Shown here in pieces: positions 875 through 32,956 of a stretch of DNA of 34,272 bases. The position numbers were made by a program, and so were the translations under genes. The stretch lies in the NCBI GenBank assembly GCA_001724265.1, contig MEDY01000324.1, positions 1-34,272 on the forward strand, read 5' to 3'. The notes below the pieces were generated by a model, which had not been told where the DNA came from, did not search any database, and saw only the letters and a list, made by a program, of their open reading frames with translations. The stretch's first letter is position 1; every line of letters starts with the position of its first letter. The DNA is from Rhizaria sp. SCN 62-66 (Eukaryota).

Positions 875-1750
875 ATGTCATCAATTGCCAACCCAGCAGT
901 ACGTACTAATGCATCAAGCTTTAGAGAATTCTTGAAGAATGCCCCGTATTTTTTTTACAAATTACACAAATGAGTAAAACTATTAAGATAAATTGCATGT
1001 ACGATGCAGCCACGTGGCCGTCACACTCTCGAATCACTGCCCACTTAAACACATATATCGATGAAACCGACATGCTGCGGAATTGAAGTTTATCTCCGAC
1101 AATTAATTATATTCGATGATTTTACACCTGCGTCTCGTTGCGATTCAATGCGATTATAGAGCACTAACACCGCAGCCCCGATCCCCACTGCTTCGTCCAG
1201 TAAGCTCGCGGCCCTGACGACCTTCACCCCCACGACCGAGGCCGAGTTCCACGCCGCCATCACAATCACCGCAAAGCCGGCCCGCGTGCGGACCGCACTG
1301 CTCTCGGCCATGGAGGTGCCGCTGAACGTGCGCGAGCGCGTGCACAAGCCGTGCTCCGCCGAGCGCGCCTGGTCGGCGACGGGCGTGCCCTTCATGCGCT
1401 GGGTCACGGGGACGCGCTACTGCGGGCCCGGCACCGACATCGCCGCTATGGACCGGCTTGGTGGGCCGCGCAACCGGCTTGACTGTCTCTGCCGCGCACA
1501 CGATGTCGAGTACGACGCGATCTCGACACGCGTGCGCAAAGGAGAGCTCACTGCTGGCGCGGCGCAGCGGCTGACGCTGGCGAGCGACAAGCGGCTCGTG
1601 ACGCGCATCAGGGACCTAATGCGCATGGGCGATCCGCAGGTCTCGGCGGAGCTGCTGGCCGTGGTGATCTGGTGCATGCGCGTCAAGGTGCTGTACGAGG
1701 AGCTGCGCAAGTGCGGCAATGACTGCGCAAGCTGCTGCACTATCATGTAA
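875..1750 (+). CDS. Phospholipase A2-like protein (PLA2X/parvoviral VP1u-type motif) with C-terminal CaaX box; exons 875-898 and 1160-1750, ~204 aa
   Basis: Ca-loop YCGPGT and catalytic NRLDCLCRAHDVEY, with a downstream SDKRL helix. The frame is open from 1160. ATG875-MSSIANPA is followed by a phase-0 GTACGT donor (899), with a TAG acceptor at 1157-1159. Ends CASCCTIM*. The 5' exon is less certain than the domain. Confidence 0.75.
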
Positions 1751-4040: not shown

Positions 4041-5377
4041 GCGCGCCGCGCCGCAGCTACAAACACGCGAGCTCACAAAGCATGATTTTTGCTCTCCGTG
4101 TTTGACTCCACCAATCAACCAACTATCGCTCTCCCGCTCTCTCTATCGCCCACAGCTGCCTTCTGCATGACCGCGCTCGCGTGGCTGCGGTGGCGCTCGT
4201 GCGCAGAGGCGGTGGCGACAGCGCACGCGACTTTAGTAACCGCTCAAAGCCGCTGCTGTTGCAGTCCCCTCTGTGTTGCTGCCTCCTCAGCCTTGCGTTT
4301 CCTGCTTCCCTGCTCTCCCGGACTTCGACTCTTTCTGTTTCCCCGCCGCTGCCGAGCAACTGTGCGCGCGCCACGCCCGTTTGGCGTCGGCGTCGCCTGT
4401 ACAGCCCACGGCACCGCGACTCACTGCACCTCACTCAACAGCACTCGCGCACGCTGTGCTGATGCTGATGTTGCTGCTGCAGCGTGTCACGGCGTTCGGC
4501 GTTGTCGCCTGGATAGGAGAAGTATGGATGGAAACGCACCCAGCTGCGTCGGGACCCCGTTTCGCCGCGCTATTTAACCTGGAAAGCGCCCGCTCTGTCG
4601 CCTACATGTGCTCAGTAGCGGTCGCTGACTGAACCCTTATGAATCGTGGGATATAACCACGTCTAATACATAATAAATACTGCAAATATCGTGGAAGATA
4701 ACTATTTATATTTCATATGTCAATCATACACTCTATAAGCTGTGTCTAGCTCGTCAAGCTCAATTGCTCAAGCCAATCTAGTCTGCCGGTGGGATGGGCT
4801 GAGCATATCAAACCTTGATTCAGTTTCCCAGTTCGTCACGTCAAACGATCGTCGGCAACGCGCTGGTGTTTGCTGCACGCGAAAATCCGCGTATTTGTTA
4901 ATATTTCTTTTTGTAAGCCCTGTAGCTGCAGTTTCTTGGGCTCTCAATACGGGTTCTTCTTTTGCCCCAATGACAATTGCGACTGCTTCGTCCTTAGTTC
5001 TTCTATCCTCCTTTCACAGCTCCATTAAGTGAATGCTCGTCGCAGTATGGGATTGTTTGATGTATTAATGCTTATATGCACCCCTTTGTCTGCTCAGTTT
5101 AGCTGCCATGTTGCCTCATCTTGTGTAGTAACCTTGATAAGATTCACCCAACGCATCCTCCCTCTCTTGAACACTCGTTCGTCTCGCCCTATCATTACCT
5201 CAACTTACGGTGCCCGCTCTTGTTCATGTATTCATCGTTTTGTTTCTTGTAGACACACTTTTCTAGCACCTGCAGTGCCTATCTAGCTGCAACGCAGTCC
5301 CGCAAACAACGCACACCACATACGCAGTACCTGCTCTGCTTTGCTCTGCTCTCTGAAGAGTCTCCCCGCGTCGCACC

Positions 5378-7915
5378 ATGGGCCAGGAGATTAGCATGCA
5401 GGCGAACACGCCCTTCACCATCGCGGGCCGTCAGGTCCAGATGGTGCGCAAGATTGCCGAGGGCGGCTACTCGTTCGTCTACTTGGTCGAGGACGTCGAC
5501 CGCCGCGGGACCTACTACGCGCTTAAGCGCTGCGTCACGGGCGACGCCGCGCAGGAGGACCTCGTTCGCAAGGAAATCGACGTCATGACCGCGCTCTGCA
5601 CGCCCAATAACCCGTACTTGGTGCCGTTTTACGGCTTCCTGAAGCGTCCGCCGACGGAGCGCGGCGGCGCGAGCGAATACTGCCTGCTGATGGAGTATTG
5701 CTCCAAGGGCAGCGTGATCCACGAGATGCAGGCCGTGATGGACCAGCGCAAGCGGCTGCATGAGACCAAGACGTTTGTCATCTGGGACGCGGCGCTGCGC
5801 GGCGTGCGCAGCTTGCACGAGGCCAGCCCGCCCGTAGCGCACCGCGACATCAAGGTCGAGAACATCCTCCTCGCCGACGACGGCAAGTACAAGCTCTGCG
5901 ACTTCGGTTCCTGCGTGCACGAAGTGGTGACCGTGGGCAACTCGTCGGCGCTGCACCTGGAGCAGGAGCGCATCCAGCGCCACTCGACGGAGATGTACCG
6001 GGCGCCCGAAATGTGCGACCTCTACCGCGCGCGCTCCAACAACTGGCCCATCGGCGAAAAGGTCGACATCTGGGCCCTGGGCTGCGTGCTGTTTATGCTG
6101 ACGCACTTCCGCCACCCTTTCGAGGACGGCGGCGTGCTGGGTATCCTCTCGGGCAAGCTCGAGATCCCTGTCCGCAGCGGCTACTCTAAGTACGCCAACT
6201 ACCTCATCTCGCGCTGCTTCACCATGGACCCGCGCCAGCGGCCGTCGGCGGCGGAGCTTAGTGAGATCACGCAGTCCTGGCGCGTGTTCCTCGCCACCAA
6301 GGGGCAGCGCCACGGCAGCGACGTTATCGCCGCCGACGTCGAGGCGCTTGTGCCCGGCGTCATTTGCGCCGCCGCGAGCTCCAGCAGCAACTCGAACGCG
6401 TCGTTCAGTGCTAACAACAACAGCAACGCCAACGCCGCCGCCCCCAAGCCCGCCGCGCGCCCGGTGCCCAGGCCCGTCGCTCAGCCGCAGCAGCAGCAGC
6501 AGCAGCAGGCTGCCGGGGGCGCGGACGCCGCGTTCGACGTCGAGTGGAGCGACGACGACAACGACACGGCAGCCGCCGCCGCCGCCAAGCCTGCGCAGAA
6601 GACGCTCGCCCCGCCACGCTCCGCCGCCTCCGCGGCCGCCGCTCCCTCGACGCCCTCGCAGAGCTTCAACGCCGGCGCGGCGGGAGCCAACGCGAGTTTC
6701 GGCGCCGGGGCTAGCTTCGGCTCCCCGACCGCGAGCATGAACCTGCCCGGCGCCAACTCGGGCCGCTCGCGGCTGCGCGCGCAACACCAGCAGCAGGTCC
6801 TGGGCACGCCCTCCGCCTCCTTCTCGCAAAACAATAACAACAATCACAGTGGCGCGGCCCACGGCGCGTTCGGCGGCGCGAGCGCGGCCGTTGAACCGCC
6901 CGCGCTGTTGCCGCAACCCTCGGCCGGCGGCGGGTCGAGCGTGTTCGACATCCTGCACGTCGACGAGTTCACGCGCAACACCACGACGATGCACCACAGC
7001 AACAACAGTGGCAGTGGTAACGGCGGCAACGGTGCTGCCAACGGCGACGACGGCTGGGGCGCGTTCTACGCCGCCGGCTTCGGCGACTTTGCCTCTGCCA
7101 ACGCAAACGCAAACAACAACAACAATGGCATCGGCAGTAGCAGCGCTACTGGCGCTGGCGCTGGCACTGGTGCTGGTGGCGCGGGCCCGCCGTCTGGCCG
7201 CAGCTCGCCGGTGCCACAGCCGCCGAGCCGGACGGGCAGCGTGCAGTCGCAGCAGGCGCAGACCAACTCGCAACAGTTGCGGCAGCCCGCGCAGCCGCAG
7301 TCGCAGGCGCCCTCACAGCTCGTGCGCGCGTCCCCGGCCCCGTCGGGGTCCCCGGCGCCGTCGGTGGCGCTGGCCAACAACGCGCTCGCCAGCATCGGCG
7401 GCTCGCCTTTCACGGCCCCGCGCACGCTGCGTCGCCAGGAGTCGCACAACAGCGCCGCCTCGGTGCCCCACGCCGCGTCCAACGTCAACTCCAACGTGAG
7501 CGAGGCGGGCGACCTGGCCTCGCCGCTGCCGGGGGACGCCGGGGCCGCGGGCATTACCGTGAGCGTGAGCAGTGGGGGCGCGGTTTCGACCGCGCAGAGC
7601 CGCATGGCCGCACGCAACAGGATCTCTGCGTCCGCGGACCCCGGCGTGCTGAGCCGCGCGATGCAGGCGCACCACAACCAGCAGCATCAGCAGCAGCTGC
7701 AGGTGCCGAGCGCCGCGACAGGCCGGGCCGCGCTGGCGCACAGCCACAGCGCAAACTTCGGCTCGCACAGTGGCCATGGCCACGGCAACGGCGCGGCGGC
7801 GCTGGTGACGCACTCGGAGCCGTCGACGCCGAACCTGATCGATATCCTCAGCGCGCCGAGCCAGGCGCCGCCGCCGCAGCAGCAGGGCGTGCTCGACCTC
7901 AGTATGTTTAACTGA
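5378..7915 (+). CDS. NAK-family (AAK1/BIKE/GAK/Ark1-Prk1-like) Ser/Thr protein kinase, 845 aa, single exon
   Basis: IAEGGYSFVYLV, YALKR, LLMEYC, PPVAHRDIKVENILL, YKLCDFGS, TEMYRAPEMCDLY, IGEKVDIWALGC are NAK-type kinase motifs, followed by a long low-complexity tail. Confidence 0.93.
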   Translation: MGQEISMQANTPFTIAGRQVQMVRKIAEGGYSFVYLVEDVDRRGTYYALKRCVTGDAAQEDLVRKEIDVMTALCTPNNPYLVPFYGFLKRPPTERGGASEYCLLMEYCSKGSVIHEMQAVMDQRKRLHETKTFVIWDAALRGVRSLHEASPPVAHRDIKVENILLADDGKYKLCDFGSCVHEVVTVGNSSALHLEQERIQRHSTEMYRAPEMCDLYRARSNNWPIGEKVDIWALGCVLFMLTHFRHPFEDGGVLGILSGKLEIPVRSGYSKYANYLISRCFTMDPRQRPSAAELSEITQSWRVFLATKGQRHGSDVIAADVEALVPGVICAAASSSSNSNASFSANNNSNANAAAPKPAARPVPRPVAQPQQQQQQQAAGGADAAFDVEWSDDDNDTAAAAAAKPAQKTLAPPRSAASAAAAPSTPSQSFNAGAAGANASFGAGASFGSPTASMNLPGANSGRSRLRAQHQQQVLGTPSASFSQNNNNNHSGAAHGAFGGASAAVEPPALLPQPSAGGGSSVFDILHVDEFTRNTTTMHHSNNSGSGNGGNGAANGDDGWGAFYAAGFGDFASANANANNNNNGIGSSSATGAGAGTGAGGAGPPSGRSSPVPQPPSRTGSVQSQQAQTNSQQLRQPAQPQSQAPSQLVRASPAPSGSPAPSVALANNALASIGGSPFTAPRTLRRQESHNSAASVPHAASNVNSNVSEAGDLASPLPGDAGAAGITVSVSSGGAVSTAQSRMAARNRISASADPGVLSRAMQAHHNQQHQQQLQVPSAATGRAALAHSHSANFGSHSGHGHGNGAAALVTHSEPSTPNLIDILSAPSQAPPPQQQGVLDLSMFN

Positions 7916-9472: not shown

Positions 9473-12322
9473 TTACATACCATCGCCCATCGGCGCCCGC
9501 GGTCCGCCGTTCGGCGCTGAGTAAACTTCATCCCCAAAGTAGCCCCCCTCATCGTCGCTATTACCGCTATTACCGCCGTGGCCGCCGCCGTTGCGCTGAG
9601 CAGGCCTGAACCTACCACCAGCACCAGCAGCAGCGCCGGCGCGGGCAGCAGTGCTCAGCATCATTGCGTAGTCGCCCTGTCCGCCGTAGCCGCGCTCGCG
9701 CTCGCGCGGGTCACGGTTGCGCTCGCGCCCGCGGTCACGGTCGAGGTCACGGTCGCGGTAAGCGCCGCCCCTCTGCATACCCCCCATGCCGCCCATGCCA
9801 TGTCCCGCGAGCGCCTTAGCGCGGCGCCCGCCGGCCTGCGCCTTGCTCTGCTGCGCCTTAGCCGCCGTCGTCGCGACCGCCATGTCGGCGACGGCGCCGT
9901 AGGGGGCCAGCGCACGGACCGCGGAGTCGGCAGCGCGCGCCGTGGCCGCAGATAGCGCGGCCGTGGCGCGCGCCATGCTGTAGCGCTGCGAGGCCTGCAG
10001 CGCCTCGGTCGACAGCGCCTCGGCGGCCGCGCGCGAAAGGCCCAGCGGCGCGGCGCGCGCGGCGGCCGTGGCCGTGGGTGCGGGCGCGAGGACGGCGACG
10101 CCGCCCGCGGCCGCCGCGGCGGATACGGCCGCGGGCGCGAAGTGGACGACGCCCGCGACGGCGTCAAGGCGGCCGCGCAGCTCGCCCGCAAGCAGCATGT
10201 CGGCGAGCAGCGCCTCGACCTCAGCGGCCGCGACGGCGAAGCGCGCGGCGACGTCGGCGAGCGCGGCCGTGGCGTGTGTGGCGGCCATCGCGACCAGCAG
10301 GCCGCGGTGCAGCCCGCGCGCAGAGCCCGCGGCGTGCACGCGCAGCCAGGCGTCGCCCGTGGCGGCCGCCGCATGCGTCAGCGCCTCGCGTGCGACGGCG
10401 AAGCGCGCCAGGTCCTTGCCCTCGAACGCGGCACGCATCTCGGCGGCCGCCGTGAGCGCGGACGTGGGCGCGGCCGCGAACGCGCGCGCCTCGGCGGCCT
10501 GCAGCGGCGACACGGGGTGGCTGCACAGCACCGACGCGAGCGCCGTGGCGGCCAGCGCACGCTTGCCCAGCGCGGGGTCGCCGGCCTCCTGCGCGAGCGC
10601 CACGGCCTGGAACAACGCGCCGTACGCCGCCTGCCAGCGCCCGCAGTCGCCGTGGTAGCGGCCCCACAGCTCCGCCAGCGCTGCCGCGGTCGCCGGCGCG
10701 GGCACCACGAAGGCCAGCGGGCCGCGCGCCGCGGCGTGCAGCGCGGCCAGCTGCGCGGGGCGTTGCTGGGACTGCGCGCGCGCGGCCGCGAGTGCAATGA
10801 TCGTGAGCAACTGCTCGCCGCGGCCCAACAGCGCCGCGCGACGGGCAATCTCGGCCACGCTCATGTCGGCGGCGTCCGCGTCGGCGGCGGCAGAGCTAGA
10901 GCTTGGACTGATCAGAGCAGCAGCGCAGCCGCCGCCGACGAGAGGGGGCAGGTTGGCGCACGTGCGCATAAGGTTCACGAGCGCGACGTCGACGTCTGCG
11001 GCACTGGCGCCGACACTGCTGTCGTCGCTGCCCGCAGCGTCGTCGTTGTCGTCCCGCATCGCCCCGCCCTGCGACAGCGCGGGCGGCGCGCTCTGCTGCG
11101 TGTTCTGCACTGTTTTGGCCGTGCTGAGCAGGCGCTGCACGCGCGCAAGCGAGATGTCGAACAGCACGGCCCAGTGCGAGGGCATCGCCGCTAGCACCAG
11201 CTCCACCGCCGCCAGCGCGCGCCGCGCCACGCCGCCTTCGCCGCTGTTGTTGAGCGCAGTGATGACCGCGGTGAGAGCGCGGCGGCCCTCGTCCAGCCGC
11301 ATCGGCACCAGCGCGGCGACCGGGGGCAGCCCCGCCCGCTGGAATGCGCCGCTCACGGTCGTCGCGCTCACGGTCGATGTCGCGGTCGCTGTCGTGGTCG
11401 CAGGGGCGGCGGCGTCCAAGTCGGCGGCGGCGGCGTCCCCGCCCGCGTGTGTGACGGAGAACGAGTCGATTGACATCGCGGAGAGCAGCAGGGCCAGCGC
11501 GTACGCAACGCCGTTAACGCCGGCCCCGGCGCCGGCGCCGGCAACGGCAACGCGTCCCTCAGCCGTGGGCTCCCAGGCCTCGCCGAGGGCGACGGCGAGC
11601 TCAGCCTGCGCGGCGACGGCCTTACGGTAGACCCCCGCGGCCTCCTCCAGGTCGTTGCGGCCCCCGGCGGCGTCGGCCAACAGCGCGGGCTCCGCGGCCG
11701 CAAGCGCGAGCGCGGCGCGCGCGTGGGCCAGGCGCTGCGGTGCGGCCGCGTACTCGCCAGAGTAATAGAGGTTGCAGAAGTGCGCCGTGAGTGTGAGCCC
11801 GGCGGGCACGCCCAGGGCGGCGAGGCGCGCGCTCGGCCCAGAGGAAGCCGCGCCTAAAGCAGAGGCCGTGAGAGCCGCGCCGGCGCCGACACTGGCGCCA
11901 GAGGAGGCACTCGAGGCGGGCTGTGGGCGCACCGGCGCGGCGGAGCCCCAGTTGGCGCCCTCGTCCAGCTCGCCCCAGTCCGCTCCAGCGCCGCCATCAG
12001 TTGCATCGCCAGTCTCGGTCGAGGCGCCGGCGTTGGCGGCGGCGGCAAACGCGTCGGTGGCGTCGCCGTCAGCGGCAGGGAACGAGGCCGAGGCGCCGCC
12101 CGCGGCCGCGCCGTCGTCGAACGCGTTGTCGAAGCCGGCGTCGCCGCCGCCAGCGGAGGATGTGAAGCCGGTATAGTCGCAAGTCTCGCAGCCGCCGCCG
12201 CCGCACCACGTGCACGGCTCCGAGGCGCCGGAGTCAAATCCGGCGCCGGCATCCGCGGAGGACGATGTGCCGATGCAGGAGTCGCAGCCGGCGCCGTCGC
12301 ACCAAGCGCAGGAGTCGGACAT
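9473..12322 (-). CDS. Divergent COP9 signalosome subunit 2 (CSN2)-like PCI-domain protein, 949 aa, with two N-terminal Cys4 motifs
   Basis: PCI winged helix LADVAARFAVAAAEVEALLADMLLAGELRGRLD. ELWGRYHGDCGRWQAAYGALFQA and LASVLCSHPVSPLQAAEARAF resemble CSN2 ECGGKMH...AHTDFFEA and [21 protein letters not shown]. NLYYS resembles NQYYN. The last codons overlap a possible GTATGT donor, so a further short exon is possible. Confidence 0.7.
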   Translation of the reverse strand: MSDSCAWCDGAGCDSCIGTSSSADAGAGFDSGASEPCTWCGGGGCETCDYTGFTSSAGGGDAGFDNAFDDGAAAGGASASFPAADGDATDAFAAAANAGASTETGDATDGGAGADWGELDEGANWGSAAPVRPQPASSASSGASVGAGAALTASALGAASSGPSARLAALGVPAGLTLTAHFCNLYYSGEYAAAPQRLAHARAALALAAAEPALLADAAGGRNDLEEAAGVYRKAVAAQAELAVALGEAWEPTAEGRVAVAGAGAGAGVNGVAYALALLLSAMSIDSFSVTHAGGDAAAADLDAAAPATTTATATSTVSATTVSGAFQRAGLPPVAALVPMRLDEGRRALTAVITALNNSGEGGVARRALAAVELVLAAMPSHWAVLFDISLARVQRLLSTAKTVQNTQQSAPPALSQGGAMRDDNDDAAGSDDSSVGASAADVDVALVNLMRTCANLPPLVGGGCAAALISPSSSSAAADADAADMSVAEIARRAALLGRGEQLLTIIALAAARAQSQQRPAQLAALHAAARGPLAFVVPAPATAAALAELWGRYHGDCGRWQAAYGALFQAVALAQEAGDPALGKRALAATALASVLCSHPVSPLQAAEARAFAAAPTSALTAAAEMRAAFEGKDLARFAVAREALTHAAAATGDAWLRVHAAGSARGLHRGLLVAMAATHATAALADVAARFAVAAAEVEALLADMLLAGELRGRLDAVAGVVHFAPAAVSAAAAAGGVAVLAPAPTATAAARAAPLGLSRAAAEALSTEALQASQRYSMARATAALSAATARAADSAVRALAPYGAVADMAVATTAAKAQQSKAQAGGRRAKALAGHGMGGMGGMQRGGAYRDRDLDRDRGRERNRDPRERERGYGGQGDYAMMLSTAARAGAAAGAGGRFRPAQRNGGGHGGNSGNSDDEGGYFGDEVYSAPNGGPRAPMGDGM

Positions 12323-13150
12323 GCCTAGAGGTTCAGAGGAGCGAAGACGATGTCAGAGTTCAGAGGTTTTCGAAGCGTGAGCAAAGTGACACGAACGTTT
12401 GATAGAAATATGGTTTACATGCGACAAATTAATTTCATAAACACGGAGTTAATGTCAGACTACAAGAAGTATTGAAGTGCTAGAGACGAGATACGAGTGA
12501 GGTGAGCTCAATTTGGATTGGTGGTCAGAGTTGACCTGAGAATCGCGAAACTTTCACATTGTTGCTAGCGCGAATCTGATCGCAAAGAACCGATTAAGAT
12601 ACAGTGCAGAATTTTATGTTCTGTTTTGTGCCCATCTCGTTAATTATAGTGCCTCAAATTCACGCTGTCGTGCTCAAGTTACTTGTTTATTTGGCCACTC
12701 ATGGCGGTCGCCTCCCAGTTGGCGCCTTGCTCTGTGGCCAGCTCTGCACACCAAGGACAAGCTCGTGTCGATCGCGCATCGCGAGTATACTAGTCGATTT
12801 CACGTATCTATTGTGTTGGTTTAACGTTGTTATTCTTGCCATGTCTTGTGTTATGGTCGTCTTGGTGTATATCCTCTCACTTCATCCTTCGCCCCTGCAG
12901 CCCCGTCAAACACCCTGTTCAAACTCTTTCCTCGCGCACAGACACGCAGCAAACCCTCTAATCTTCATAACACGGCGTTAAGTTACGTCTGTACTTTTAA
13001 ACTTGTACTTTGAGGTCCAACTGCCAAGCCCATTGTTTAGCTCTGCTAAAGGCCTCCGACTTCTCCTTGCCTCCTGCAAACACACTCTACGAACGTCACA
13101 CCGCTGGACGGCTTTTGCTGCTCGAGTGCCGCTGACTCGCCTATATCACC

Positions 13151-15257
13151 ATGCCTCGCGAGCTGATCACCATCCAGGTTGGCCAGTGCGGCATGCAGCT
13201 GGGCACACGCTTCTGGGTACGTCTTTAGCCTCTTTGTTCTCTGCACATCCGATCTCTGCACTGGATGCATGCCGAGTGTTCACGCAATGCGCTGGACCAT
13301 GCGGAACCCTTTTTTTTCTTATGGGTGTACTATCGTGTACTACTAAAGATAGGTATATTTGCACTTATTTGCTCACGCATAAATACTTTGTGTCTCCACT
13401 CTTACTCGCACTTCACTCATCCTTGCACTCACACTTGCACGCCGCTCGTCACTGTATTGAACGGTAACACCAGGACCTCGCGTTGCGCGAACACGCAGCT
13501 GCGATGGAGCAGAACGGCGCCGGGCCGCAGGGCTCGCCGGTGTTTGACGAAGCCATATCATCTTTCTTCCGTAACGTCAAAACAAGCAAGTACGTCCGTC
13601 GCTCAATGTGACGCTTTCCTACCAATTGTGCTCACTTCACTGCAATTTGACTTTCTCCTTGAAATACTCAGATATTTTGTAAAAAATAACGCTAAAAATC
13701 CTGAAAATAACATTTTTATTATCATATGCCATTCGCACTGCACCGCACTCCTGTGCAGGAACGGGTGCGTGGACGTGCCCATCGGCGACGGCACCTCGCC
13801 CATCTACTCGCTGCGCGCGCGCGCCGTTTGCATTGACATGGAGGAGGGCGTGCTGAACCGCCTCATGCGCTCCCCAATGGGCGAGCTCTTCGACAACGCG
13901 CAGTTCGTCAAGGACGTCTCGGGCGCAGGCAACAACTGGGCGCACGGCCACGGCCACTACGGCCCGCTGTACGCCGACGAGATCCTCGAGGCCGTGCGCG
14001 TGGCGGCCGAGAAGTGCGACTCGCTGCAGTCCTTCTTTATCATGCACTCGCTGGGCGGCGGCACGGGCTCCGGGCTGGGCACCTACGTGCTGCACCTGCT
14101 GGCCGACGCGTACCCCGACGTCTACCGCTTCAACACGGCCGTGTTCCCCGCGGGCGGCGGTAGCACCGACGTCGTTACTGCGCCCTACAACTCGGTCCTC
14201 GCGCTCAACCAGTTCCGGCTCTTCTCCGACGCCGTGCTGCCCGTCGACAACGAGGCCCTGGTCGACATTGTGAACCGCATGTACAAGCACAACCACAGCC
14301 CCATCGGCGCGGCCAGCGCGGCGCTCAGCCCCGCGCAGCAGCAGCAGCTCGCCGCCGGCGTTGGCCGCGTGCTTGACGCGGCCGCGATGCCGGACCTGGG
14401 CGTCCCCGCCGGCGCCGACCCGGCCGCCGCTGGTAATAGCGCGACCTCGGCGGCGGCGGCGGCGGCGGCGGCGGAGAAAGCGCAGCGCGGCAAGGCCTTT
14501 GAAGACATGAACGGCATTGCGGCGCACTTGCTGACGTCGCTCACCGCGTCGATGCGCTTCCCGGGCGCGCTCAACATCGATCTGAACGAGATCACAATGA
14601 ACCTCGTCCCGTTCCCGCGCATGCACTTCCTGGTGTCCTCGCTCGCCCCCTTGCACGCTGGCCGCAACGCGCAGCCGCGCTCGCTCGACCAGGTGCGTCA
14701 TGTTGTTATTAGCTTATCCACACACAAAAAATCGAACGTGTATTCATTTTCTCTGACTCATTCCAACCGCTTTTATTTCCTTCGTGCATTTTTAGATGTT
14801 TTCCGACACTCTGTCGCCGCACTCGCAGCTGATCTCGCCCTCGCCCTACTCCGCGGCGTCGTCGACCTACCTGGCGCTGGGTTTCTTCGCGCGCGGGCCC
14901 TCGATCCACGTCTCGGATATGGCGCGCAACGTCGCGCGCGTCAAGGCCACCGTATCGATGGCGCGCTGGAACGCCGACGGGTTCAAGATCGGGCTCTGCG
15001 GCGTCCCGCCCGTGGGCGTGCAGCGCTCCGTGCTCGCGCTCGCTAACAACACGTGCATTGCGGGCACGTTTGAGACGATGCGGGAGCGCTTCCTCAAGCT
15101 GTACCGGCGCCGCGCGCACGTCCACCACTACACAGACTACATCGAGGGCGCCGCCTTCGACGACGCGCTCGAGGGCATCGAGGAGCTGATCGGGGACTAT
15201 CGCGGTGCCGCCACGCTGGCGCCCTCGGAGGAGGCGCGCATGCGCCCGCTCGGCTGA
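13151..15257 (+). CDS. TUBE1: Epsilon-tubulin; exons 13151-13216, 13474-13589, 13759-14692, 14796-15257, ~525 aa
   Basis: [14 protein letters not shown]..., [82 protein letters not shown] and [14 protein letters not shown] are epsilon-specific. All three introns are GT-AG and frame-consistent. Confidence 0.95.
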
Positions 15258-26854: not shown

Positions 26855-27527
26855 AGAGACTTCTTTGTAGAATGATATCCAAAAGTATTATTCCATGCTA
26901 TTATCATATTATATTAACCAAGAATGATACAGTTACTTTAGTGATTCAAGTTCTTGATATCGAGCTCTTGTAAAGCATGACTTGAACGAGTTATAGTAGA
27001 CCCAGAAGATGAATGATGTACAATTGAACCGTAAATTTACATGATGTTGATGCGCGTATATATGTATATTAAGTTATTTTTGACTTTTTTGGAATCCAAT
27101 GAATCATATTGAGAACGACGAAGAAATCTGCCAGTTACAGTATTGGAAGGACTGGCGGGGACCGAAAAAACATGGAATGCTTCAAGCAAAGTTGTTGGAC
27201 GCGCCATGAAATTGAAACGAGGCGTAAACAGACACCGAAGGCCGAGGGGTGTTTAATTTATTGTGATATATGGAACTTATGCGTCTGAATCTGTAACATA
27301 TTTAATTGGCGCGCTTATCTGAGCCGACATAGGCCTTGGGCGCGCATGCGAAGAACCCCGTCTAGCACGCTCTCCCTGGTCCACAAATCTCCGCTCACCG
27401 CGCCGTTTTCGTCCCCGTCTTTGTCCATCTAGCTACCAAGCCCTCCCCCCTCAGCACCTCCCGGTTTCACCTAGTGTCTCCAGCGCCGCCCGCTCCGACC
27501 CGCGCCGCGTCTCCTCCCACACAGAGC

Positions 27528-29547
27528 ATGTGGCACCACGGCAACGCGATGTCGCAACAGCAACAGCAGCAACAGCAACAGCAGGGACTGCAGAACCGTC
27601 CCGCGGGCGCCCCCAACGGCATGCCCCTGATGCAGAACCTCATGTCGCACTCGGTCTCCGGCGGCGGCGCGGGCGTGCCCCCGCCAGGCGCCGCGGGGCC
27701 CGCCGGGCTGCGGCCGGGTATGGCACATCCCCTGCTCCCGCAGCAGCTGCAGCAGCAGCAGCAGCTCCAGGCCCAGGCGCAGCAGCTCCAGCAGCAGCAG
27801 CAGATGGCTGCGCAGATGCAGTCGCAGTCGCAACAGGCCCAGGCGCAGGCGCAGGCGCAGATGCAGGCGCAGATGCGCATGCAGGCCGGCATGGCGGGCC
27901 TCAACATCAACGGGCTCAACGGGCTCAACGTCAACGGCTTGAACGTCGGCGTCGGCGGCATGGGCGTGCTGCACGGCGCCGCGGGCGGTCACCCCGGTCA
28001 GCTGCAGCTCGGCCTGCACCAGCAGCACATGCAGCAGCAGCAGCAACACCTCCAGCAGCAGCAACAGCAGCAGCAGCAGCAGCAGCAGCATCAGCATGAG
28101 GCGGCGGCGGCGGCGTCCCTCGGCATGTACGGTGGCGGCGGCGGCCACGGCGGCGGCGACCACGGCGACGGGCACTACGGCGGCCACGGGCGACACGGTG
28201 TCGACGGCGCCGCGCAGCAGGGCCAGGACCAGCAGCAGCAGCAACAACAACAGCTTCAGTTGCAGCAGCTGCAGCAGCAGCACCAGCACCACGCTGCGTA
28301 CGCCTCCGCGCAGCAGCAGCTGCAGCACCAGCAGCAGCAGTACCAGCAGCAGCAGCAGCATCAGCATCAGCAACACCTCCAGCAGCAGCAACAACAACAA
28401 CAGCAGCAGCAACAGCAGCAGCAGCTCCACAACGTACACGGCCACGGCGGCCACCCGCAGCAGCAGCAGCACCCCCAGCAGCAGCAGCAGGCGCAACCCC
28501 AGCAACAACCGCCGCAGCAGCAGCAGCAGCAGCAGCAGCAGGGCCAGTCCGGCGGCTTAACTTCGGAGCCGGTGGCGCCGATCACCGACACGGGCTACCG
28601 CAGCGAGTACGGGCTACTGGGTATGATGCCCTCGGTCGGCAAGCAGTCGCTGGACGTCATGTTCCTCTCGGTGGGCGTTGAGCTCACCGCGCTGGGGCTG
28701 CTGATGCACCCCAACGAGCTTATTCACCCGACCGTGGACCGGCTCGTCAGCGACGCGCCCTCGCGCCCGGACCCGCTCGCAGCCGTCCCCGTCTGCTATT
28801 ACGCCGCGCCCGCGCCCGCCGCACCTCCCGCCGTCTCCGCCTCGTCCGCCGCCACCGCCACAGCGAGCGCGAGTGCAAGTGCGACCGTGAGCAGCGGCGA
28901 GAGCGAGAGCCTGTCGCACCTGTCAACGCCCACAGTCATGTACGCCTTCTACTCCTCGCCCCGCACCAAGCGCCAGTACGTCACAGAAAACTTCACGCAA
29001 ACATGCACATATTATGTGTCGAATCAACCTGATATATCTATCACTTGTCGGCCTCATCTGAAATGTTGTGTCAAATCGTTCTCTAATGCTACCGTCACAT
29101 TGTTCATCATTCATTGTTCGATGCTCATTTCATATCTGTCTCGTTCTCGCTCTTGTGCTCGCTTCTTTCTCTCGCCTCCCTAGACTGGCTGCGGTGTCGA
29201 CGCTGTACGCGCGCGGCTGGGTGTGGAATAAGACGCGCCAGCTGTGGTATCTGCGCACCCCCGCGCTCTCCAACACCGGGCTCGCGGGCACTGGCAACAC
29301 CAACGCCGCCACTGGCTCCACCGCGGGCGCCCCGAGTGCAACGGGCGCGGCCGCGGTGGCGGCGGCGCTGGGGGACCGCGCGGAGACGCACGTGCTGAGC
29401 TGGGACCTTAACACGTGGCAGCAGGTCGCCGTGCCGCGCGCGCAGGTAGCCGCCGACGCCGACGCCGCGACCAAGGAGGAGCTCATGGCCGAGGAGCCAG
29501 AGCCCGCGGCCGCGACGGTCTTGACTGTGGCGGCCGACGGCAACTAA
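27528..29547 (+). CDS. CNOT2: CCR4-NOT complex subunit NOT2 (CNOT2) with polyQ-rich N-terminus; exons 27528-28975 and 29184-29547, ~603 aa
   Basis: YGLLGMM..., LSVGVELTALGL, VPVCY, TVMYAFYSSPRTKRQ|LAAVSTLYARGWVWNKTRQLWY, WDLNTWQ match the NOT2 anchor region and NOT box. Phase-2 GTACGT...TAG intron. Confidence 0.9.
28020..28541 (+). repeat. Interrupted (CAG/CAA)n trinucleotide arrays encoding poly-Gln/His tracts of NOT2
   Basis: Multiple runs of 8-17 Gln codons. The block CAGCAACACCTCCAGCAGCAGCAACA occurs twice. Confidence 0.9.
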
Positions 29548-30029
29548 ACGTTGAGCTCAAGATCAACAAATACAGGCGAAGAAGCAAGACATATTGAGAT
29601 GACTTTTAGGAAAAGACAAACACTGGAGAGGGATCCATGGTCTTTGTGTCCTTACCAGTGTCATCATCCTCGAGACTCACGTTGTTCGCTTCTTTCCTTG
29701 TTTGGGCTTACCAATTGCTGGGTTATTAGTTGTCTATTACTTGTATGTTATTATTTTTTTGATTATTTGTTCTGGTACCGTGTTTTCAAAAACAATACAT
29801 GTCAAACGCAAAATATTGCTTTTTCACATCCTCAAAACCTTCCATGCTTACGCAAGCATAAGACCTTGACTTAGTCACATGTTGGGTTTGCGTGTAAAAC
29901 AATCTCGTTTATTATGACAATTTTAGGTTTATTTTCTTAATTTTCAAAGTATACTCATGACGCTTGCATTAAAACGTGTGTAACATCTGACTAATGACGA
30001 CACGAGTAGGGCGCAACATCGTTATTTGA

Positions 30030-30710
30030 TTACTGCGCCGCGGCGGCGGCGGCCTCCTGCAGCGCGGCGATGGCGCCGGCGCGGCCAGTGCGCGCGGCCC
30101 ACGCGGCGGCGGTCTCGCCCTTCTCGGTCGTCGCCGCGGCGTCGGCGCCAGCGGCCAGCAGCGCGCGCACGCCGCCCTCGTTGCCAGCCAGCGCGGCCAG
30201 CATCAGCGGCGTCCAGCCCTGCCCGTTCTTGGCGTTGACGAACGCCTTGACGGCGGCCGCGTCGCCGCCCTTGCTGGCCCGGTACGCGGCGACCACGGCG
30301 TCGATGCCCGCGGCCTCCCCGCGCGCGGCGGCCGCGGTGAGTGCGTTGGCGCCATCGTTCGCGCGCGCGACGGCCATGTCCGCGCCCAGCGCGGCGAGCG
30401 CGGCGACAGCGGCGGGTTGCCCGCATGCCGCGGCGGCCATCGCGGGCGTCAGCACGTCGCGCGTGCGCTCGGGCGCCACGGGGTCGCAGCCCGAGAGCGC
30501 GTTGACCTCGGCGCCCGCAGCAATGAGCGCCTTAATCACGGCCTCGTGGCCGCGGGCCGCGGCGGCGGCAAGCGGCAGCAGCCCCAGCGTGGTGGGCGCG
30601 GGGGATGAGCGCGTGTTGGCCAGCGCGGCGGCGCCGGCGCCCGCGGCGTTGAGCAGCAGCGTAACCGACTCGAGGTCGCCGTGCGCGGCCGCGCGAGTCA
30701 GCATGTCAGC
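30030..30710 (-). CDS. Ankyrin-repeat domain exon (~6 repeats), probably the last exon of the iPGM gene
   Basis: LTRAAAHGDLESVTLLL, PLAAAAARGHEAVIKALIAAGAEVN, TPAMAAAACGQ..LGAD, GANALTAAAARG, GWTPLMLAALAGNEGGVRALLAAGAD, GETAAAWAARTG. Confidence 0.9.
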   Translation of the reverse strand, partial: ADMLTRAAAHGDLESVTLLLNAAGAGAAALANTRSSPAPTTLGLLPLAAAAARGHEAVIKALIAAGAEVNALSGCDPVAPERTRDVLTPAMAAAACGQPAAVAALAALGADMAVARANDGANALTAAAARGEAAGIDAVVAAYRASKGGDAAAVKAFVNAKNGQGWTPLMLAALAGNEGGVRALLAAGADAAATTEKGETAAAWAARTGRAGAIAALQEAAAAAAQ

Positions 30711-32956
30711 CTGAGAGGGAAAAGATGCAAAACACACAAAAACAAATCAAAATAATCAGAATAAATATTCGTAGAATGTGGAAGAAACATATCGGTTTTC
30801 GCTACAACGTCAAAGAAACGTCGCTGATTGATTAAAATTATAAAACAGTACAAATCAAGACAATTATTTTGACTCGCGTCATGTGTCGCGAATGCGTACC
30901 TGTGAGAGCGCGGCCTTGGCGAGGACGTCCTCGGCGTCGGCGGCGTCGGCGCGCACGAGCAGCGAGCTGCCGGTCATGGCGGCGGGCTGCTCCACGCCCA
31001 TAAGCGCGAGCACCGACGGCGCGACGTCCTGGAGCCCACCGCCCGCGCGCAGCGCCACGAAGTGCGCCGCGGCCGCGGGCGTGAGCTGCGCGTAGAAGGG
31101 CACCGGGTGGATCGTGTGCGCCGTGTGGGGCTCGCCCGTCGCGGCGTTGCGCATCTGCTCGCAGTTGCCGTGGTCCGCGGTGAGCATCAGCGAGTAGCCC
31201 TCTTTGGCGCAGGCGGCGGCGATGCGCGCGACGGCCGCGTCCGTGGCGGCGGCCGCAGCGGTCGCGGCGGGCAGCATGATGGTGTGGCCGACCATGTCTG
31301 GCGGCGCAAAGTTGCACACGACAAAGTCGTACTTCTGCAGCGCGAGCGCGGTCTCGACCGAGGTAGCGACGCCCGCGGCCGACATCTCGGGCTGCAGGTC
31401 GTAGGTCGCGACCTTGGGCGAGGAAACGAGCCCGCGGTCCTCACCTGCGAAGTCCTGCTCGATGCCGCCGTTGAAGAAAAATGTCACGTGCGCGTACTTC
31501 TCCGTCTCGGCCGTATGGAACTGCTTGAGTCCGCGCTTAGAGAGCCACTCCGAGAGCCCGTCGCGCATGTTGTTGGGCGGGAAGACCGTGGGGAGCGTGA
31601 ACTTGGAGTCGTAGCACGTGAATTGCGCGACCGTGAGCCCCGCGCGCTTGACGCACGGCGCGCGCCCGGGCTTGTCGAAGGGGTAGACGCCCATGCCGAC
31701 CACGGAGGCGATCTCGCGCATGCGGTCCGCGCGGAAGTCGAAGAAGAGCACGGCGTCCTCGTCGCGGAGGCAGCCTGCGGGCGGCGCGTCGGCCGCCGCG
31801 CCGTGCGCCACACAGACGGGCGTAAAGAACTCGTCGTTCTCGCCGGAGGCGTACTTGGCCTGCACCGCGGCAGCCAGCGCGGCCGAGTCGGCGACCACGG
31901 TCGCGCCCGCGCCGCTCACGAGCGCGTTGTACGCGACCTCGATGCTGAGCAATGGACAGAAATATTTAGTATTATATCGGTGAGGGACATCGTGGGAAAC
32001 AAAACAAAGGATTGGCGTGTAAGATATAACAATATGAACTAGTTGAGCTCGATTAATCACTATTTTTGAGGCTAAATCTGCATGAAAGACAGTTCAAGAC
32101 GACGTACCGCTCCCAGCGCTTGTCGCGGTCCATAGCGTAGTAGCGGCCGACGACGGTGGCGACCTTGCCGTAGCCGATCTCGGCCATGAAGGCCTCGATC
32201 TGCGCCAGGTAGCCGGCGGCCGAGGTGGGCGCCGTGTCGCGGCCGTCGGCGAAGAAGTGGAGGAAGCACTCGGGCACCTGCTGCGCCTGCGCGACGAGCA
32301 GCAGCTGCTTCAGGTGGTCGATGTGCGCGTGCACGCCGCCGTCGCTGACGAGTCCCATGAGGTGCAGGCGGCCCGTCGCGGCCTTGGCCGACTCGCACAG
32401 CGCAAGCAGGCGCGGGTTCTTAGCGAAGGAGCCGTCGGCGATGGCCGCGTTGATGCGCTCCAGGTCCTGTGCAGAGGAGCAACGTGGTGTACAATGCAGG
32501 GGGGTAATGAGGATAGCAGGTGATGAGTATTAATAGTTATTAGCACAGCACACAAATTAGCGGCAAAAAGGATATATCATCTGGTTTTCATTAAAAGGTG
32601 AGTAACTGTGTCAATGACATGCGATATAAGCACTGAAATCTATGTTGCCATGCAATCAATGATCTCACACCATCTGAGTCGTGAGCAAGACGGCGCATTG
32701 TGCGTGTGAGGGGACGTGCCTGAAAGTCGATGCGTCCCGCGCCGATGGTGAGGTGGCCGACCTCGCTGTTGCCCATGATGCCGTCGGGCAGCCCCACGGC
32801 TAGCCCGTGCGCCTGGACCGTGGTGGCGAGGCTGCGCTCGGCCAGCGCCGTCATGCCGGGCGTAGGGGCGCAGAAGTTGGCGTTGGACTCGGAGGGCGTG
32901 GTGACGCCCCAGCCGTCCAGCACAATCAGGCAGACCTTGTTCTCCACCGTCGCCAT
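30030..32956 (-). CDS. gpmI: 2,3-BPG-independent phosphoglycerate mutase (iPGM) with a predicted spliced C-terminal ankyrin-repeat domain; exons 32956-32720, 32466-32108, 31944-30900, 30710-30030, ~773 aa
   Basis: LIVLDGWG, MGNSEVGH (phospho-Ser), SDGGVH, DGRD, GRYYAMDRD, FRADR, AETEKYAHVTFFFNGG, SPKVATYDLQPEMS, NFAPPDMVGHT, TADHGN, HTAHT are all intact. The iPGM call is certain; the join to the ankyrin exon is inferred from a phase-0 GTACGC...CAG intron. Confidence 0.9.

Follow-up and report, generated by a model that had tools for sequence, protein, structure and literature searches.

The window analysed here is the whole of contig MEDY01000324.1, a stretch of 34,272 nucleotides (nt) assembled from Rhizaria sp. 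SCN 62-66. On its minus strand lies a gene of four exons that runs from an ATG at 32956 to a stop codon at 30032–30030. Its product of 773 amino acids would comprise a complete cofactor-independent phosphoglycerate mutase (iPGM), a linker of 19 residues and six ankyrin repeats, in that order. iPGM interconverts 3-phosphoglycerate (3PG) and 2-phosphoglycerate (2PG) without 2,3-bisphosphoglycerate and depends on Mn or Co; as a rule, it works as a free monomer. A first-pass annotation, made from the letters of the window, had proposed that this mutase is spliced in frame to an ankyrin domain and that retention of the third intron might switch between a plain and a fused form. We regard the fusion as very probably real, given a spliced contig that unites the two parts and a second protein of the same architecture.

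Gene model and splice joints of the mutase–ankyrin gene

When the four exons were joined computationally, they gave 2319 nt, or 773 codons free of stops. All the coordinates proposed for the gene by the first-pass annotation (ATG, donor, intron 3, phase of exon 4 and the stop reached on retention) were found to be correct. Exon 3 as a whole spans 31944–30900 and ends ...TCACAG at 30900. It is followed by the AT-rich intron of 189 nt that had been described (30899–30711, GC content 0.34), which joins to exon 4 in phase 0. If this intron is kept, the frame adds six codons and closes as a plain iPGM of 553 amino acids ending VRIRDT, again as had been read. The donor GTACGC at 30899 had been called typical of this genome, and the remainder of the window agrees with this: its 44 AT-rich islands divide into 7 long spacers and 37 short ones, and GTACG was found near an edge (within about 15 nt) in 14 of the 37 short islands, where about 2 were estimated by chance.

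Four public runs were mapped to the window as contigs. X2 comes from wastewater and is labelled RNA-Seq/cDNA, X3 is from the same sample as X2, X1 is a polyA metatranscriptome and X5 is DNA-like. The junction check suggested across 30900/30710 was run on these contigs, and one contig of X2 (151 nt, depth 3.7) contained the exact joint 30900|30710, flanked by 87 letters of exon 3 and 64 of exon 4. This joint removes exactly 189 nt, has GT..AG ends on the strand of the gene and keeps the frame. Each of the nine X2 pieces matched the window at 99% or better, and the eight listed all lay outside the introns of the iPGM–ankyrin gene. The other two introns were bridged as well, intron 2 in both X2 and X3 (31944→32108, 163 nt skipped) and intron 1 in the polyA run X1 (32465→32719, 253 nt skipped). 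Record 24 of the DNA-like X5 covers 30670–30976 unspliced, including both exon edges and intron 3, with one differing letter. Because this contig spans the region, misassembly does not account for the genomic arrangement.

Some further features of the mapped contigs were recorded. Intron 1 ends GC..AG instead of GT..AG; the X1 contig across it leaves four letters ambiguous, and no placement other than GC–AG is canonical. AATAAA occurs in none of the three introns and twice in the 3′ region, where the pair possibly acts as polyadenylation signals; 29718–29961 is covered by a polyA-RNA contig of X1. Three joints were rejected as splicing: one in X5 (30339→30932), with a short side of 20 letters, extra letters and non-canonical ends, and two in X1 (30954→31866 and 31222→32236), with short sides of 22 and 20 letters and non-canonical ends. 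All three are interpreted as joins to other sequence of high GC content. At 30563, in the ankyrin exon, one X1 contig reads C>T (depth 5.2 of 8.6), which is probably a strain variant.

The same architecture was found in a second protein, P0001, which has 819 amino acids and is encoded on a contig of 7431 bp. It carries an iPGM, a linker and a six-repeat ankyrin module in one polypeptide and in the same order. Identity between P0001 and the window protein is 74% over exon 3 (the iPGM part) and 58% between residues 593–810 of P0001 and the entire exon 4. The latter alignment takes in exon 4 from its very first residue (ADMLTR... against ADTLTR...), ahead of an internal ATG at 30704. P0001 has a linker of 20 residues in which Ser, Lys and Gly are frequent; its sequence is unrelated to that of the 19 residues in the window protein, and it occupies the same place at a nearly equal length. 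The two parts are joined in frame by a transcript-labelled contig (one contig, one run), and the architecture is conserved in the orthologue P0001, which bears out the proposed fusion.

At the position of intron 2, P0001 has a T-rich insertion of 32 residues (about 201–233) that starts with RYV. Such a start is what reading through an intron beginning GTACGT would be expected to give, and P0001 therefore looks like a raw call of an open reading frame (ORF). The protein suggests that the gene caller read through some 96 nt of in-frame intron at this site, in which case the true protein would have about 787 amino acids. The protein collection holds other ORF-style calls, among them P0121, which is the window's own gene as a fragment of 357 amino acids ending VRIRDT; for this reason, P0001 is most simply explained as a raw ORF. 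If so, its mutase and ankyrin parts lie in one uninterrupted frame, without introns 1 and 3. P0001 shows no break at the positions of either of these introns, and intron 3 is probably absent from it and not conserved. The source DNA of P0001 was not among the 80 loci listed in each of the genome and metagenome contig searches; the listed loci were iPGM-only matches with 37–46% identity over query residues ~1–630, mostly bacterial or archaeal by title.

Table 1. Positions of the mutase–ankyrin gene, its parts and other genes in the window
Feature	Positions	Strand	Remarks
Exon 1	32720..32956	-	79 codons from ATG; N-terminal part of Metalloenzyme including the catalytic Ser region; Pfam 8.4e-15
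Intron 1	32467..32719	-	253 nt, GC..AG ends; bridged in X1
Exon 2	32108..32466	-	119 codons + 2 nt; initial half of iPGM_N (transferase); Pfam 4.5e-49
Intron 2	31945..32107	-	163 nt, GTACGT..CTCAG; bridged in X2 and X3
Exon 3, enzyme part	30957..31944	-	Remaining iPGM_N and C-terminal half of Metalloenzyme, to ...MTGSSLL
Exon 3, linker	30900..30956	-	19 codons, VRADAADAEDVLAKAALSQ; past the usual end of plain iPGMs
Intron 3	30711..30899	-	189 nt, GTACGC..CTCTCAG, GC 0.34, 6 in-frame stops
TGA, first in-frame stop if intron 3 is kept	30879..30881	-	Ends a 553-amino acid iPGM with VRIRDT
Exon 4, coding part	30033..30710	-	226 codons; starts GCT GAC ATG, phase 0; six ankyrin repeats
Stop codon TAA	30030..30032	-	Closes the coding frame
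Two AATAAA hexamers, possible polyadenylation signals	29933-29928, 29913-29908	-	AT-rich 3′ region
Long ORF, largely poly-glutamine runs	27366-29183	+	Convergent neighbour on the 3′ side of the fusion gene
Tubulin-family ORF	13229-15043	+	Pfam Tubulin 1.4e-38
PCI-domain protein gene	9476-12352	-	Window annotation
Protein kinase gene	5357-7912	+	Window annotation
Phospholipase-A2-like domain gene	1160-1747	+	Window annotation

The window is eukaryote-like, with exons of 70–80% GC and introns and spacers of about 35–45% GC; the GC content at third codon positions (GC3) is about 0.94 in exons, and the donor consensus GTACG is unusual. The frame of the poly-glutamine ORF seems to resume past an AT-rich island (28982–29155) that begins GTACGT. 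The tubulin-family ORF matched solved beta-tubulins only at ~1e-47 over ~155 residues; since this match is far weaker than expected of a true alpha- or beta-tubulin, the ORF may belong to a divergent tubulin class.

Mutase core, linker and ankyrin module

Pfam matches on all exons were judged against the curated cut-offs, and all lay above them. Exon 3 matched Metalloenzyme (2.3e-51) and iPGM_N (5.1e-15), and the layout of the protein is that of an iPGM, a Metalloenzyme (phosphatase) domain interrupted by iPGM_N (transferase). The closest solved structure was 5kgn_A, with an E value of 9.7e-88 over 334 residues of exon 3. With canonical iPGMs of the alkaline-phosphatase superfamily, such as 5kgn_A, the window protein has in common the two-domain core with inserted iPGM_N; unlike them, it continues into the 19-residue linker and 226 ankyrin residues. 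The N-terminus agrees with those of plain homologues and has no extension, and no C-terminal targeting signal was obvious when the sequence was read by eye.

To assess conservation, the spliced protein was aligned with 225 iPGMs of 500–565 amino acids, and the columns with a conservation of 97% or more were counted. Of 59 such columns, 58 were kept in the window protein, and 58 were likewise kept in P0001. The kept columns include D14, S64, H125, R155, D156, R187, R193, R270, R273, K348, D415, H419, D456, H457 and H475, which would correspond, in terms of the Geobacillus enzyme, to the nucleophile that forms phosphoserine, the ligands of both metal sites and the residues that bind substrate. 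The sole missed column is G421I, directly after the metal-binding His of the motif DMVGHT-G (codon at about 31240–31242 on the minus strand). This position is Gly in 223 of the 225 reference iPGMs, as in the canonical enzyme, and Ile in both the window protein and P0001. The earlier statement that all catalytic and metal ligands are intact thus holds for the conserved columns as counted, but not for the immediate surroundings of the metal site, where a near-invariant Gly beside a metal-binding His has been replaced. The mutase core is complete and, as judged from its residues, probably active.

Past the enzyme, the frame goes on further than in plain relatives, which end 1–8 residues beyond the MTG.SLL motif, whereas the window frame continues for 19 codons. 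The GC3 of this linker (57 nt) is 0.95, compared with 0.93 in exon 4, 0.93–0.95 in the exons and 0.29 in intron 3. The linker looks coding because its GC3 is like that of exons and far from that of intron 3. It is rich in Ala and Asp and would form a flexible, low-complexity segment of about 20 residues.

Exon 4 matched five ankyrin families of Pfam: Ank_2 (2.1e-19, 70.3 bits; cut-off 27.3), Ank_4 (3.7e-15, 56.1 bits; cut-off 22.7), Ank_3 (38.5 bits; 22.3), Ank (36.8; 21.1) and Ank_5 (33.6; 27). Read from the sequence, the exon consists of an N-cap, four internal units, one of them with an insertion, and a C-cap, which makes six repeats. The six readable units agree with the estimate of about six repeats in the first-pass annotation.

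Rarity and origin of the architecture

A search with exon 3 was performed against a collection of 5.8 billion proteins, limited to longer proteins (610–2000 amino acids), and gave 488 matches of 7999 scored. Among the 120 longer iPGM homologues listed, ankyrin families were present in one, P0001. Conversely, the ankyrin part of P0001 (residues 575–819) was used as query, and 6843 of 8000 scored proteins matched at E <= 0.001; among the 120 matches listed for this query, iPGM was present only in P0001, and the others were generic long ankyrin arrays. In a protein-atlas comparison, residues 440–819 of P0001 likewise matched no clusters other than generic ankyrin ones, the highest score being 0.90.

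No further fused form was found in the best 150 matches to P0001 obtained by phmmer against 1.84 billion representatives. Pfam was run on eight of these 150, five of which have at least 596 amino acids, and Ank was found in none of the eight. Two further long matches among the 150 bear other domains, and one match of 4340 amino acids aligned to P0001 through ankyrin arrays only. The nearest proteins of ordinary length, P0122–P0128, are 52–59% identical and are plain iPGMs.

The origin of the fusion was examined in a FastTree phylogeny of 45 sequences hand-picked from 505: the window protein, P0001, their 11 nearest sequences, 27 labelled by organism or source and 5 distant ones. The window protein and P0001 were sisters (support 1.0). 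This pair was nested in the clade of the 11 nearest sequences, which are unfused (support 0.997), apart from labelled fungi, animals and other eukaryotes. Because the sister pair sits inside an unfused clade, the fusion appears to be derived; it would be a feature of a small, uncultured eukaryotic lineage, of which two or more members retain it.

No description of an iPGM–ankyrin protein was found among the papers listed by full-text searches, as judged by titles and the starts of abstracts, and the co-occurrences of phosphoglycerate mutase and ankyrin found there look incidental. The unfamiliarity of the fusion, noted in the first-pass annotation, is in line with this absence and with the single case among the 120 listed homologues. 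We conclude that the iPGM–ankyrin fusion, real at the strength given above, is rare and lineage-restricted.

Alternative readings and possible function

Taken as a whole, we consider it likely that one four-exon gene encodes a 773-amino acid iPGM–linker–ankyrin protein. An mRNA from which the 189-nt intron 3 has been removed would be translated into a mutase, a flexible linker of ~20 residues and a six-repeat ankyrin solenoid. The mutase would still perform the 3PG/2PG step of glycolysis, and the ankyrin module would bind a partner protein and thereby place or regulate the mutase. Ankyrin repeats are protein-binding scaffolds, with units of ~33 residues that fold as helix-turn-helix and stack as a solenoid. 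Because they are such scaffolds, partner binding is the most likely role for the module; that it serves localisation or regulation of the mutase is a proposal that we hold to be evenly balanced. Tethering to a metabolon, the cytoskeleton or a flagellum would be speculation. Glycolytic enzymes with extra domains or anchors include the stramenopile TPI-GAPDH fusion, the kinetoplastid PAS-PGK and enzymes anchored in flagella or sperm. These are precedents for domains or anchors gained for localisation, and none of them is known to involve iPGM or ankyrin repeats.

Several observations weigh against this reading, and they concern the joint, the relative and the two modules. The joint of intron 3 comes from a single contig of a single run, at a depth of 3.7, and that run, X2, is tagged 'RNA? 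(probably DNA)' despite its cDNA label. If X2 is DNA, the contig would represent an intron-less copy, which would have a continuous frame for both parts all the same. X3, from the sample of X2, is without the joint and has no cover over 30679–30940, and X1 has almost none there. The continuity of the ORF in P0001 is deduced from its protein and not from DNA. The Ile at a near-invariant Gly in both fused proteins makes full mutase activity less than certain. When the ankyrin exon was folded alone (single-sequence AlphaFold2), the model was poor, with a mean predicted local distance difference test score (pLDDT) of 50.2 and a predicted template modelling score (pTM) of 0.31; in this model, the alanine-rich ankyrin part was nearly all helical.

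The ankyrin module might instead act within the protein or between copies of it, docking on the mutase or self-associating and thereby tuning activity. The two domains of the mutase must open and close. The replacement of Gly by Ile beside a metal ligand, common to both fused proteins, could be a co-adaptation to such contacts, and the length of the linker has been kept (19 against 20 residues) though its sequence has not. Both species, however, go back to a single evolutionary event, and their common substitution may be coincidence. We therefore consider it unlikely.

The switch proposed in the first-pass annotation would have regulated retention of intron 3, or polyadenylation within it, toggle between a free 553-amino acid iPGM and the 773-amino acid ankyrin form. 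Intron 3 sits exactly between the modules, and retention would end the frame after six codons and leave the enzyme complete. A precedent exists in the mammalian glutaminase gene GLS, whose KGA isoform ends in ankyrin repeats that the splice variant GAC lacks (PMC13142944). As an enzyme of central metabolism that carries ankyrin repeats at its C-terminus, GLS offers the closest known parallel to both the architecture and the switch. It differs in its catalytic fold, which is unrelated, and in pathway and lineage; its ankyrin part need not be homologous, and one isoform is seen here. Enzymes with an appended ankyrin module are a known kind, to which the window adds an iPGM. An early stop is, however, expected in any AT-rich intron, and intron 3 has six in frame. 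AATAAA is missing from this intron and present in the 3′ region. Only the spliced form was seen, in the cDNA-labelled X2; the RNA runs leave intron 3 uncovered, so they give no sign of retention, the sole unspliced cover is from the DNA-like X5, and contigs cannot quantify the two forms. The linker of P0001 is continuous and of the same length, with no room for an intron, and a switch would not be conserved there. On these grounds the switch went unsupported, and we consider it quite improbable.

A bolder version combines several of these elements: the ankyrin module would dock iPGM on a fixed structure or on neighbours such as enolase as a hard-wired metabolon, unspliced intron 3 would release free enzyme, and the change from Gly to Ile would be an adaptation to tethering. 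We hold this to be decidedly doubtful.

Two adjacent genes could also account for the locus, a plain iPGM that ends at the stop at 30879 and an ankyrin gene that starts at the ATG at 30704, with the joint a rare read-through or conjoined transcript. This ATG is in frame, three codons into exon 4, and ORF-style calling does yield a separate 357-amino acid product (P0121). The spacer between such genes, however, would be only ~170 nt, compared with 473–894 nt for the intergenic AT-rich stretches of the window. The iPGM frame passes its normal end by 19 codons, at exon-like GC3, and reaches a consensus donor. The match to P0001, which is one polypeptide, starts before the ATG at 30704, and the cDNA contig unites both parts in frame at GT..AG. 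Two genes are thus very unlikely. That the fusion is an artefact of assembly or gene calling, such as a chimeric contig, is extremely unlikely: the source is metagenome-like, GC-rich alanine-coding DNA gives spurious joins and odd short-sided joints were seen, but the independent DNA-like record of X5 spans the region, the cDNA contig joins identical exons and the independent, NCBI-derived P0001 has the same architecture.

The single-gene reading has consequences beyond this locus. Fusions of this kind escape notice when genes on eukaryotic metagenome contigs are called as plain ORFs, as shown by this gene, which is stored as a 357-amino acid fragment. If the ankyrin part has no specific role, the fusion would be another case of ankyrin promiscuity in domain shuffling. 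If it does bind a partner, an iPGM with a built-in protein-binding module would provide a handle on whether and to what a glycolytic step is anchored in a cell, and with the fusion shared by two species, its ankyrin module could serve as bait for that partner.

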